A stretch of 64,000 nucleotides of DNA from Escherichia coli O127:H6 str. E2348/69 (GCF_000026545.1 NC_011601.1); one strand, 5' to 3'. Positions 18,371-45,132 are shown, counted from the first letter of the stretch. Notes: generated by a model not told the origin, from the sequence alone. Program-made: numbers and translations.

Positions 18371-19081
18371 AAATGCGCCTATAAGGCTCTCTTACCAGCC
18401 GCGCCCTAACAGGCGCACACGATCTGACATTTGCATCCAACTTCGTTACTTACGGCCCGTAAACGGGCTGCCCGGATAGGGAATCGATAACTGCTCTCCC
18501 ATTTTATCCTCTTCAAGCTGGTGCTTTATGTAATCCTGTATCTTCGCCGTGTTCTTACCCACCGTATCGACGTAATACCCTCTGCACCAGAACTCCCTGT
18601 TCCTGTACTTGAATTTCAAATCACCAAACTGCTCGTAAAGCATCAGACTGCTTTTCCCTTTCAGATATCCCATAAAGCCGGATACGCTCATTTTGGGCGG
18701 GATCTCCACAAGCATATGGATATGATCTGCACAGCATTCAGCTTCCAGAATCCGTACACTTTTCCACTCACACAGCTTTCTCAAAATACAGCCTATTGCT
18801 CTACGCTTCTCTCTGTAGAACACCTGTCTTCGGTATTTTGGCGCAAATACTATGTGATATTTACAGTTCCATCGGGTGTGCGCTAAGCTCTTTTCGTTCC
18901 CCATTGGGACCCCCTTTTGATTTCTTGTTTGACACTTGCAGTTGCCAGACCGCAAGGTGTTTTAACAAATCAAAAGGGGTTTTAATAACTGGCTCAAAGC
19001 TGAAAGCTTTCCGGAACCCCCAGCCTAGCTGGGGGTTTTCTGTGCACAAAAATGGATGGTGCTAATTGCACCATCCCCTTT
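18371..19081 (-). mobile_element. IS200 insertion sequence (IS200/IS605 family); boundaries approximate, about +/-20 bp
   Basis: About 0.7 kb carrying a single Y1-transposase gene, with the two left-end hairpins typical of IS200 (19054..19077 and 19015..19037); fills an add-ydgJ spacer that is short in K-12 as I recall. Confidence 0.8.
18446..18904 (-). CDS. tnpA: IS200 transposase TnpA (HUH/Y1 family)
   Basis: 152 aa from MGNEKSLAHTRWNCKYHIVFAPKYRR...HIHMLVEIPPK; closely resembles Salmonella IS200 TnpA; the ORF track gives a longer 169-aa frame. Confidence 0.9.
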   Translation of the reverse strand: MGNEKSLAHTRWNCKYHIVFAPKYRRQVFYREKRRAIGCILRKLCEWKSVRILEAECCADHIHMLVEIPPKMSVSGFMGYLKGKSSLMLYEQFGDLKFKYRNREFWCRGYYVDTVGKNTAKIQDYIKHQLEEDKMGEQLSIPYPGSPFTGRK

Positions 19082-20122
19082 TCACGCAAGGCACAAAGTC
19101 ACGCGATGTTTGGCGGATTCGATGCCCAGCTCAATCAACTCCATTACCTGGATTGCCTGACTTGCCGGAACCGGATTTTCACCATCGCCATTTAACGCAT
19201 CACGAATAGCCGCATAGTAAGCCGGATAATTCCCCGGCACTGTCAACAGCGTTTCTTCGACACGTTCCTCACCTTCCACGCGGGTAAGTACGCCATCACG
19301 CATATCGTAGCCCCAGTCTTCCTGCGGCAGACGCTCGCCATTTTTCAGACGTTCTTCCTGTGGATCGAGGCCATATTTCACATAACTGCCTCGGGATCCA
19401 TGCACGATATACCGTGCTGACTCGGCTGCTGCCAGCATGGTGCCGTGTAAAATCACTCGCCGCTGCGGATAGGACAAGATAGCGTGGAAATAATCGGTCG
19501 ACTGCGCTCCGGGCCGTAACTGTGCCAAATCTACCGTCATGCTAACCGGTAAACCAAATAACGTAATGACCTGATCAAGAAGGTGCGGTGCTAAATCGTA
19601 CCAGATACCGCTGCCTGGGCCGCCCTGTTCACGCCAACGATCGCGCACCTGCGGACGGAAGCGGTCAAAATGGGACTCAAAGTAAGCAATTTCCCCCAGC
19701 ACGCCTTCCGCGAGCAAACCTTTTAGCGTCAGGAAATCGCTATCCCAGCGACGGTTATGGAATACAGACAGCACTCGCCCCAGGCTTTTTGCCAGCGCTT
19801 CCAGCTCTCGTGCTTGTGACAGTGTCACGGTAAAGGGTTTATCAACGACCACATGTTTACCCGCCTCAAGCGCCGCTTTGGCTAACGGAAAATGGGTATC
19901 GTTGGGTGTAGGAATGACAATCAGGTCTATGTTGGGATCGTTAAACAGATGCTTCGGCTCAGAGACAACCGTAACCGTTGGCCAGTCAGCTTTTACTTTT
20001 GTTTCATCGCTGCTGGAGATTACCGCCAGCTCCAGCCCGGGCGTGCCCGCAATCAGGGGCGCATGGAAGGTTTTGCTCGCATAACCATACCCAATCAACC
20101 CAACACGGATGTTGTCGCTCAT
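19082..20122 (-). CDS. ydgJ: predicted NAD(P)-dependent oxidoreductase (Gfo/Idh/MocA family)
   Basis: ORF track gives 359 aa; recognised N-terminus MSDNIRVGLIGYGYASK at 20122 (346 aa). Confidence 0.9.
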   Translation of the reverse strand: MSDNIRVGLIGYGYASKTFHAPLIAGTPGLELAVISSSDETKVKADWPTVTVVSEPKHLFNDPNIDLIVIPTPNDTHFPLAKAALEAGKHVVVDKPFTVTLSQARELEALAKSLGRVLSVFHNRRWDSDFLTLKGLLAEGVLGEIAYFESHFDRFRPQVRDRWREQGGPGSGIWYDLAPHLLDQVITLFGLPVSMTVDLAQLRPGAQSTDYFHAILSYPQRRVILHGTMLAAAESARYIVHGSRGSYVKYGLDPQEERLKNGERLPQEDWGYDMRDGVLTRVEGEERVEETLLTVPGNYPAYYAAIRDALNGDGENPVPASQAIQVMELIELGIESAKHRVTLCLA

Positions 20123-20364
20123 GTCATTGCCTCTCATTGAAGTATGATGGCTATTTGACACTATCCTTTACCCTCGCTCAACAGTTTAATAACCTGCCAG
20201 CAATAAGGGATGTTGTTTAACTTAAGTCAAAAAAATAGCGATTTTTCCAACGACAAAAGCTAAATATTGCAAAAACCTCAGTAAAAATCTTGCTGGAGCT
20301 ATTATTGCTAAGTAACATTTACCCCCTGAAGTTAATGGATCAATCAACAGAGATGTGGGCTGTA

Positions 20365-20490
20365 ATGAATCGTCTTATTGAATTAACAGGTTGGATCGTT
20401 CTTGTCGTTTCAGTCGTTCTTCTTGGCGTGGCGAGTCACATTGACAACTATCAGCCACCTGAACAGAGTACTACAGTACAACACAAGTAA
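20365..20490 (+). CDS. blr: small membrane protein Blr (41 aa)
   Basis: MNRLIELTGWIVLVVSVVLLGVASHIDNYQPPEQ... inside the larger ORF 20290..20490. Confidence 0.8.
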   Translation: MNRLIELTGWIVLVVSVVLLGVASHIDNYQPPEQSTTVQHK

Positions 20491-20762
20491 GCTCTGCACT
20501 TGTTGAGCGACATGCTGCCCGTCCGGGTGCATGTTTTCACTTGTCGGATATTAAACCAGGAATTTATTATCTTGTTCGATGTTGTTGATGATTGTCAGGG
20601 ATAGTAAAGCGCGTTACTCTTTCCAGAGCAGTTTTTCATCCCTGAATATTTGCCATCAGCACATTCTTATTATTGTAATAACACAAGCATTCACTTTTGG
20701 TGAAATTTTATCATCACTAATAATACCTACCCCTTTGGTATTAATTATTTTATGGACCTTTT

Positions 20763-44903: not shown

Positions 44904-45132
44904 ATGGCAAATAATCCAAACCCTTCATCGCCCCTGCCGGACGTGTTTTCACCGGCGACCCGCGACTGGTTTCTTCGCGCCTTTAAACAGCCGACAGCTG
45001 TCCAGTCGCGAACCACGGCTGCGCTTTACGCTAACAGAAGTGAATGACCTACCGGTCCGGCAAACGCCGATGTTTACGCGGTTACGTGAGGCGGGATTTT
45101 CAAGTTCGCCACAAGGGCTGGATTGGGGATAG
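44904..45132 (+). pseudogene. lhr: remnant of ATP-dependent helicase Lhr: 5' 102 bp and 3' ~127 bp joined out of frame
   Basis: ATG at 44904 encodes MANNPNPSSPLPDVFSPATRDWFLRAFKQPTAVQ, the Lhr N-terminus as I recall it, then stops after 47 codons; the +1 frame gives a C-terminus-like ...VRQTPMFTRLREAGFSSSPQGLDWG* ending at 45132. Confidence 0.7.

Follow-up and report, generated by a model that had tools for sequence, protein, structure and literature searches.

The DNA between add and ydgJ in Escherichia coli O127:H6 E2348/69 holds a structurally intact copy of IS200C, belonging to the tnpA-only subgroup of the IS200/IS605 family, which inserted in the lineage of this strain into the 33-bp spacer separating the two genes; the probability of this reading is put at about 95%. 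The locus itself is already known, as the element is an ordinary IS200C copy that has been annotated: RefSeq lists its tnpA ORF in E2348/69 as an 'IS200/IS605-like element IS200C family transposase', with add on one side and ydgJ on the other, and the name IS200C is taken from this RefSeq/PGAP product line. The 831 bases spanning the element are 100% identical in three assemblies of E. coli O127:H6 E2348/69. No other transposase or integrase appears in the RefSeq annotation of the whole window (the 64,000-nucleotide stretch of the E2348/69 chromosome analyzed here, running from tus to ydhV), and the original prediction that this is the sole mobile element within it therefore holds at the level of annotation.

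Transposase, ends and RNA structures of the element

The element carries a single ORF on the minus strand (tnpA, 18446..18904), with its ATG at 18904 and its stop at 18446-18448, encoding the 152 aa product that had been quoted in the original prediction. The protein begins MGNEKSLAHTRWNCKYHIVFAPKYRR and contains HIHMLVEIPPK; its HUH motif is H61-I-H63, and the catalytic tyrosine Y125 and Q129 are both present. The Y125F substitution renders Salmonella IS200 TnpA catalytically dead (PMC4513863). The protein had been named an IS200 Y1/HUH transposase from its sequence, and this identification is now backed by the RefSeq annotation, by NCBIfam transpos_IS200 (NF033573; 145.9 bits, E 6.7e-43, cut-off 55), by Pfam Y1_Tnp (PF01797; E 1.9e-37) and by an Rfam match upstream of the ORF, where the model of the IS200 5'UTR, STnc490 (RF01405), aligns to minus-strand positions 19037-18914 (146.4 bits, E 3.5e-31, gathering score 56). 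Relatives of the transposase with solved structures include IS608 TnpA (2A6M/2VJV, E 1e-18) and ISDra2 TnpA (2XM3, E 4e-16); taken together, the NCBIfam, Pfam, PDB and Rfam matches exclude chance. The further characters of the IS200 group are also seen: a Y1 HUH transposase of ~150 aa, tnpA without tnpB, a length of ~0.7 kb (711 bp, with one ORF), two ends that lack terminal inverted repeats and carry subterminal hairpins instead, and the 5'UTR RNA structure of the group (the STnc490/5'tnpA/art200 region) with a sequestered Shine-Dalgarno (SD) sequence. No target-site duplication is found, as the junctions referred to below as type A' and type B give back the exact sequence of the empty site.

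The 711-bp unit occupies 18339..19049 on the minus strand, as determined by alignment to the empty site of K-12 and to the IS200 copy at pepD, by comparison of 14 occupied loci, and from a dimer in strain Ch1. On the tnpA-sense strand (the minus strand of the window) its ends read 5'-TTGTGCACAGAAAACCCCC...GGAGGATATTTA-3'; as much as 2 nt of rotation is possible at these ends, and the flanking A-runs leave an ambiguity of 1-3 nt. At add/ydgJ in Ch1, two copies lie head to tail, and from their junction, GTGCACAA|TAAATATCC, the length of the repeating unit is set at 711 bp. In K-12 MG1655 the site is empty of IS200 and the gap between the two genes measures 33 bp, in agreement with the few tens of bp given for K-12 in the original prediction, the spacer consisting of one hairpin in the arrangement TAA-C-AAAATGGATGGTGCAAATGCACCATCCATTTT-TCA. 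Alignment to this empty site, as proposed in the original prediction, gave the boundaries: the insertion point in E2348/69 lies just past the add stop codon and the following C, and the native hairpin lies to the right of the insertion. The element had been placed at 18371-19081, and both the empty sites and the dimer put the true unit ~32 bp further left. Positions 19050-19081 are native DNA outside the element and include the hairpin of the ancestral terminator between add and ydgJ (GGATGGTGCAATTAGCACCATCC, then ATTTTT; 19054..19076, minus strand). This bidirectional terminator, present in K-12 and in all empty sites, scores as terminator-like when the minus strand is scanned, and its T-run contains the start of the IS left end. 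The stop codons of both neighbors are intact, that of add being TAA at 18332..18334 on the plus strand, with the insertion beginning 1-4 nt past it, and that of ydgJ at 19082..19084 on the minus strand (TCA on the plus strand) in both the sequence and RefSeq.

Empty sites with flanks like those of E2348/69 read GTAAC-AAAAA-TGG, and most occupied genomes (type A'; DSM111506 and others) read C-AA[IS]AAATGG, which is a clean insertion without duplication. Comparison of the junctions shows three A residues (18336..18338) between the add stop codon plus C and the IS unit in E2348/69, which with AAA at 19050-19052 makes six A against five in the related empty sites. E2348/69 thus belongs with XJ6.1 and CS18F to the type A junctions, which have one more A than type A'. 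The extra A is ambiguous but is not a duplication; it may reflect variation in the length of the homopolymer run or cleavage shifted by one base.

The right-end subterminal hairpin, CCTCCGGCTATGCCGGAGG (18346..18364, minus strand), folds as ssDNA at -12.9 kcal/mol and is terminator-like on both strands. In the tnpA sense this end consists of AAAAA, the hairpin CCTCCGGC-TAT-GCCGGAGG (18364-18346) and then ATATTTA; on the plus strand it reads as a hairpin followed by TTTTT. A terminator of add had originally been placed at 18346..18369, and a plus-strand hairpin with a T-run to 18369 does exist there, but it is the right-end hairpin of the element rather than a structure of add, since no empty add/ydgJ site has it and IS200 copies elsewhere do, such as the IS200C copy beside pepD in another strain. 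An Rfam match to Ysr202 at 18297-18369 was rejected, as it scores 28 bits against a gathering score of 315 and captures only the generic hairpin and T-run of the right end. Another candidate, transduction of flanking add DNA to the pepD site, was likewise rejected, as the shared sequence consists of the GCGAAGTAA gene ends and the IS right end. Both add (18325-18334) and pepD (locus L002, ~1519-1528) end in GCGAAGTAA, encoding Ala-Lys-stop, which is a coincidence; the IS200C right end lies a few bases downstream of each gene, and the BLAST match consequently ran into the gene.

At the other end, the left-end subterminal hairpin AACCCCCAGCTAGGCTGGGGGTT (19015..19037, minus strand) has AAAA on its 5' side and folds as ssDNA at -11.7 kcal/mol; in the tnpA sense the end reads TTGTGCACAG-AAAA followed by the hairpin AACCCCCAGC-TAG-GCTGGGGGTT at 19037-19015. 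This hairpin is the first helix of the STnc490 match, its counterpart in Salmonella IS200 is the bidirectional terminator at nt 12-34 (PMC4513863, PMC5435999), and it is presumed to be the TnpA binding site. Aligned in direct orientation, the two end hairpins agree at 19 of 26 positions and show compensatory changes in the stem, and each has an A-tract (A4-5) at its 5' foot. Between the left end and the ORF, the tnpA 5'UTR forms a stem-loop (18911..18979, minus strand) supported by RNA folding (-40.9 kcal/mol, z -4.2) and by the Rfam alignment, with the SD AAGGGGGU paired inside the stem. A 5'UTR stem pairing the SD has been described for IS200, where the opposite strand encodes the antisense RNA art200 (PMC4513863). 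The STnc490 model matches the tnpA-sense strand, covering the left-end hairpin and the 5'UTR stem (18914-19037, minus strand), and STnc490/art200 has been described as antisense to the tnpA 5'UTR (PMC4513863); the strand of the Rfam model may therefore represent 5'tnpA RNA rather than art200.

The element could also be viewed as an immobile relic in E2348/69, retained for its RNAs (5'tnpA, art200) or by neutrality. IS200 transposes only very rarely and is regarded as nearly dormant (PMC4513863), RNA derived from its 5'UTR regulates host genes in Salmonella (PMC4513863, PMC5435999, PMC12594629), and no sigma-70-like promoter was found in a sequence scan of the region. The E2348/69 copy differs from the commonest E. 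coli IS200C at 5 nt, bearing one amino-acid change (S39C) and four further substitutions of uncertain effect. However, the sequence shows an intact ORF with its catalytic residues and an intact hairpin at each end, and the presence of IS200 at 1 to 36 places per genome together with repeated recent gains at add/ydgJ indicates that, over evolutionary time, the family does move in E. coli. An immobile relic is accordingly regarded as unlikely, and a structurally intact IS200C copy is the preferred reading.

As the element landed between the add stop codon and the terminator shared by add and ydgJ, immediately after the T-run as read on the ydgJ/tnpA strand, its consequences for the neighbors can be predicted from the sequence. 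The insertion would disrupt no gene. The ydgJ gene would keep its native terminator, which should also shield tnpA from read-through, whereas add probably has no direct access to the shared terminator and its transcripts would meet the IS right-end hairpin and TTTTT instead. In a scan, that right-end hairpin is terminator-like on the plus strand and could serve add; a terminator supplied by the element may well act in this position. The locus is a silent annotated IS between convergent genes in the reference EPEC strain, and a lineage marker at most. For annotation practice, a terminator-looking hairpin beside a gene end may be IS-derived in genomes that bear IS200.

In K-12, the position between grxD and rnt is presumably that of the 4.6-kb lhr gene. 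In the window, the same interval (~44904-45132) holds two overlapping pseudogene fragments in RefSeq, an ATP-dependent helicase lacking its N-terminus and an endonuclease lacking its C-terminus, and lhr of E2348/69 appears to have been deleted down to a remnant of ~230 bp. The glucuronide uptake porin gene uidC (~6679-7944, minus strand) is also a pseudogene in E2348/69, with an internal stop (RefSeq).

IS200 left ends beside terminator hairpins

One observation here that might be new is a terminator-adjacent rule of insertion. Read on the ydgJ/tnpA strand of E2348/69, the native hairpin and its T-run are followed by the IS left end (GGATGGTGCAATTAGCACCATCC-ATTT|TTGTGCAC), and at pepD the left end likewise comes after GTCCACGCCCGCAGGCGTGGAC-ATTA. 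To extend this comparison, left-end flanks were sampled with the exact 19-mer of the left-end hairpin, taking one genome per species, which gave at least 120 loci from very diverse taxa; the sample is an arbitrary, limited genome set made up of the matches listed, each with the exact 19-mer. A hairpin was scored when its stem had 6 or more pairs, of which 4 or more were G-C, and it ended 0-9 nt before a junction set at a fixed offset. Among the matches listed, a GC-rich hairpin precedes the left end in 88 of 90 unique flanks (98%), and in L136, one of the two flanks lacking such a hairpin, a longer-loop hairpin is visible by eye. As controls in the same loci, again among the matches listed, hairpins precede 232 of all 1,703 same-strand T5 runs (14%) and 69 of the 397 T5 runs outside ORFs of at least 100 aa (17%). 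The flank itself is T-rich, with T at 87, 63, 76, 80 and 64 of the 88 flanks counting outward from position -1 (76 at -3 and 80 at -4) among the matches listed. The orientation is constant in these listed flanks, running from hairpin to T-run to left end on the tnpA strand. Under a stricter terminator definition (5 or more T among the final 8 nt, relative to a heuristic junction that is misplaced in some flanks), 62 of 88 flanks are retained among the matches listed.

Approximately 14 of the 19-mer matches (L045, L048, L101-L111 and similar) were left out of the flank analysis, as they belong to another repeat. In that repeat the same 19-mer hairpin is found in the context ...AATAAGCAT-hairpin-TATTTCTT, and in the reverse, and no IS200 left end is present. 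The exact 19-nt left-end hairpin occurs in Vibrio, Brenneria, Oxalobacter, Mailhella/Desulfovibrio, MAGs of Bacillota and Peptococcaceae, Saccharibacteria and Elusimicrobia, often at contig ends; this distribution suggests a wide horizontal spread of closely related IS200 elements.

Head-to-tail IS200 dimers were seen at five loci (L016, which is the Ch1 locus, at 1292-2713, and L113, L114, L116 and L130), with the junction ...GGATATTTA|TTGTGC... and an extra T in L130. These tandem dimers arose either by insertion into an IS right end that itself served as target or as products that retained the junction.

The pattern could alternatively be produced by selection only, with IS200 entering any T-rich sequence and the surviving copies being those that follow terminators. 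Insertions after the terminators of convergent genes are harmless, and in the IS608 paradigm a tetranucleotide target alone is required (PMC5027513). The control argues against this explanation without excluding it, since among the matches listed hairpins are found at only 17% of the non-ORF T5 runs compared to 98% of IS200 flanks. Survival would also have to account for the constant order of hairpin, T-run and left end on the tnpA strand in the listed flanks, and for the repeated targeting of the terminator-like IS right end in tandem dimers. Selection as the whole explanation is thus improbable, although selection for harmless insertions could contribute alongside target choice. The location of IS1541 between pheL and pheA in Yersinia, an attenuator-terminator region, is a consistent anecdote (PMC3082878). 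No statement of terminator targeting by IS200 or IS1541 was found in the literature searched, the coverage of which does not extend to the older IS200/IS1541 papers. Within this sample the association is firm (98% against 14-17%). The joint claim, that the pattern reflects true target choice and has also not already been described, is doubtful and is offered tentatively.

A mechanism can be proposed from other members of the family. By analogy to IS608 and ISDra2, TnpA would excise the tnpA-sense strand as a single-stranded circle and then integrate it 3' of a short target within DNA that is single-stranded at the replication fork. The natural RE-LE junction in the dimer fits a circle-junction-like product without proving a ssDNA circle. 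Judging from the flank pattern, the target of the IS200 group would be the T-run of an intrinsic terminator: the A-tract beside the left-end hairpin may pair with the target T-run, in the manner of the guide and cleavage-site sequences of IS608, and the right-end A-tract may similarly pair with the ATATTTA(TT) cleavage site. A terminator, being a hairpin with a T-rich tail, would be preferred as a mimic of the right end of the element. Such terminator homing, if true, would explain the little damage caused, the repeated hits at sites such as add/ydgJ, and the head-to-tail dimers; the smallest autonomous IS could thereby persist at high copy number with little harm, and both insertion sites and element ends would become predictable from sequence alone.

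Members of the family follow a common rule (PMC5027513): integration takes place on the lagging-strand template, with the left end placed 3' of a short target sequence particular to each element. The start of the window (1-462) lies inside tus, placing the locus just outside tus/TerB at the edge of the replication terminus region. The GC skew of the plus strand is -0.033 in all four quarters of the window, and the colinear position in K-12 is 1.70 Mb, in the left replichore; together these indicate that the minus, tnpA-sense strand is the lagging-strand template. This position of the tnpA strand, seen at one locus, is consistent with the family rule rather than a test of it.

Occupied and empty add/ydgJ sites in E. 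coli

Among 5,426 complete E. coli genomes, a 120-base query across the left junction is covered in 23 and a 160-base query taken across the uninterrupted site of K-12 in 5,400, so that the insertion at add/ydgJ is both derived and rare. The original prediction that the insertion is derived relative to K-12 is borne out by these counts, as neither K-12 nor most E. coli carry the 0.7 kb at this site. IS200 itself is much more widely held: approximately 1,948 of these genomes have at least one near-full-length copy anywhere, with 1 to 36 places per genome and a median of 2, as counted with a query that included flanks, and the E. coli collection holds roughly 15,000 chromosomal places in all.

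The occupied sites are not uniform. In the type B junction, found in Ec-2939 and A30, the element lies 3 nt further left (TAA[IS]CAAAATGG); the flanks of Ec-2939 are identical to those of empty K-12, and the flanks of A30 show 7 differences from K-12. The flanks of 21AH126, Z142-2 and PRO_A are identical to each other (0 differences) and to those of the empty site in WP5-S18, and yet 21AH126 carries an IS200C-type copy while Z142-2 and PRO_A carry a variant differing from it at 23-28 of 711 positions. Empty flanks differ from occupied ones at 0-3 positions over 1,300 bp; the empty flanks of MS8345 show 3 differences from occupied Es_ST80 and 10 from E2348/69 over this length. The two junction registers, the two IS variants within identical flanks, and the empty sites with identical flanks point to recurrent gains at add/ydgJ, of which there would be at least three or four that are independent, and probably more.

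These observations bear on whether one insertion event could have spread to all 23 genomes by homologous recombination of the add-ydgJ segment. Most occupied genomes do have the element at the same junction position (type A or A'), and recombination is frequent in E. coli. A single event is nonetheless very unlikely: the type B junction is displaced by 3 nt and in Ec-2939 sits in a flank identical to the empty K-12 site, the copies in 21AH126 and Z142-2/PRO_A differ within flanks that do not, and the flank haplotypes are up to 3-5% apart, each with empty-site twins. The notion that the 0.7 kb is ancestral at add/ydgJ and was lost by deletion in K-12 and most strains can draw on the ability of IS200/IS605 elements to excise precisely, by which some empty sites could be secondary, and on the related flanks and related IS copies of E2348/69, DSM111506 and Es_ST80, but it is effectively refuted by the 5,400 of 5,426 genomes that are empty, the lack of a scar at empty sites whose flanks are identical to occupied ones, the two junction registers and two IS variants, and the occurrence of the same 711-bp unit at unrelated loci such as pepD, at up to 36 places per genome. 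Insertion of an IS200C copy in the E2348/69 lineage is therefore retained as the explanation for this locus.

Several of the other occupied sites show changes of their own. The copy of Es_ST80 at add/ydgJ (L005, 950-1405) is annotated as a tnpA pseudogene with its C-terminus missing, and in the copy of 21AH126 (L006, ~838) the terminal right-end base is substituted, changing TTTA to TTTT on the top strand; these two copies exhibit decay or variation at the cleavage site. In strain 98192 (L015, ~2282-2319), a 19-bp tandem duplication (TCACGCAAGGCACAGCGTC x2) at the 3' end of ydgJ, beside the IS-occupied site, alters the end of ydgJ in that strain.

Comparison with known systems

The closest system to the E. 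coli IS200C copy is IS200 of Salmonella. The two have in common a length of ~707-711 bp, a single 152-aa TnpA with HUH and Y125, the left-end terminator hairpin, the 5'UTR stem sequestering the SD, and the art200/STnc490 region, and both lack inverted repeats and target duplication. The unit is 711 bp here, as defined by the dimer junction, compared to the 707 bp quoted for Salmonella IS200 (PMC4513863); published IS200 ends are hard to fix because of the T-rich flanks.

IS608 of Helicobacter pylori and ISDra2 resemble the element in having a homologous Y1 transposase, a subterminal hairpin at each end, a short stretch on the 5' side of each hairpin foot with the potential to pair with the cleavage site, and a left end placed 3' of a short target in the lagging-strand-template orientation. 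They differ in carrying tnpB and in targeting TTAC or TTGAT with no known structural requirement, whereas the IS200 copies studied here are without tnpB and have as their target a T-run after a hairpin, in 98% of flanks among the matches listed.

A functional parallel is provided by class C (IIC) group II introns, which home just past intrinsic terminator hairpins and thereby follow an analogous safe-haven strategy. These introns consist of a ribozyme with a reverse transcriptase, and the likeness to IS200 is functional only. The locus itself is not a group II intron, as no such family is among the Rfam matches with E<=1 in 17000-20500 and the only ORF is the Y1 transposase.

Lastly, the REP/RAYT system (TnpA-REP) is built on a related Y1 HUH fold and on hairpin-plus-guide recognition (PMC3333891, PMC6006769). 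The transposase of the element scores 31.4 bits against NCBIfam REP_Tyr_transpos (NF047646), for which the cut-off is 80, and assignment as a RAYT was rejected. A RAYT is a single domesticated gene flanked by REPs, whereas the element between add and ydgJ is a discrete multicopy IS.
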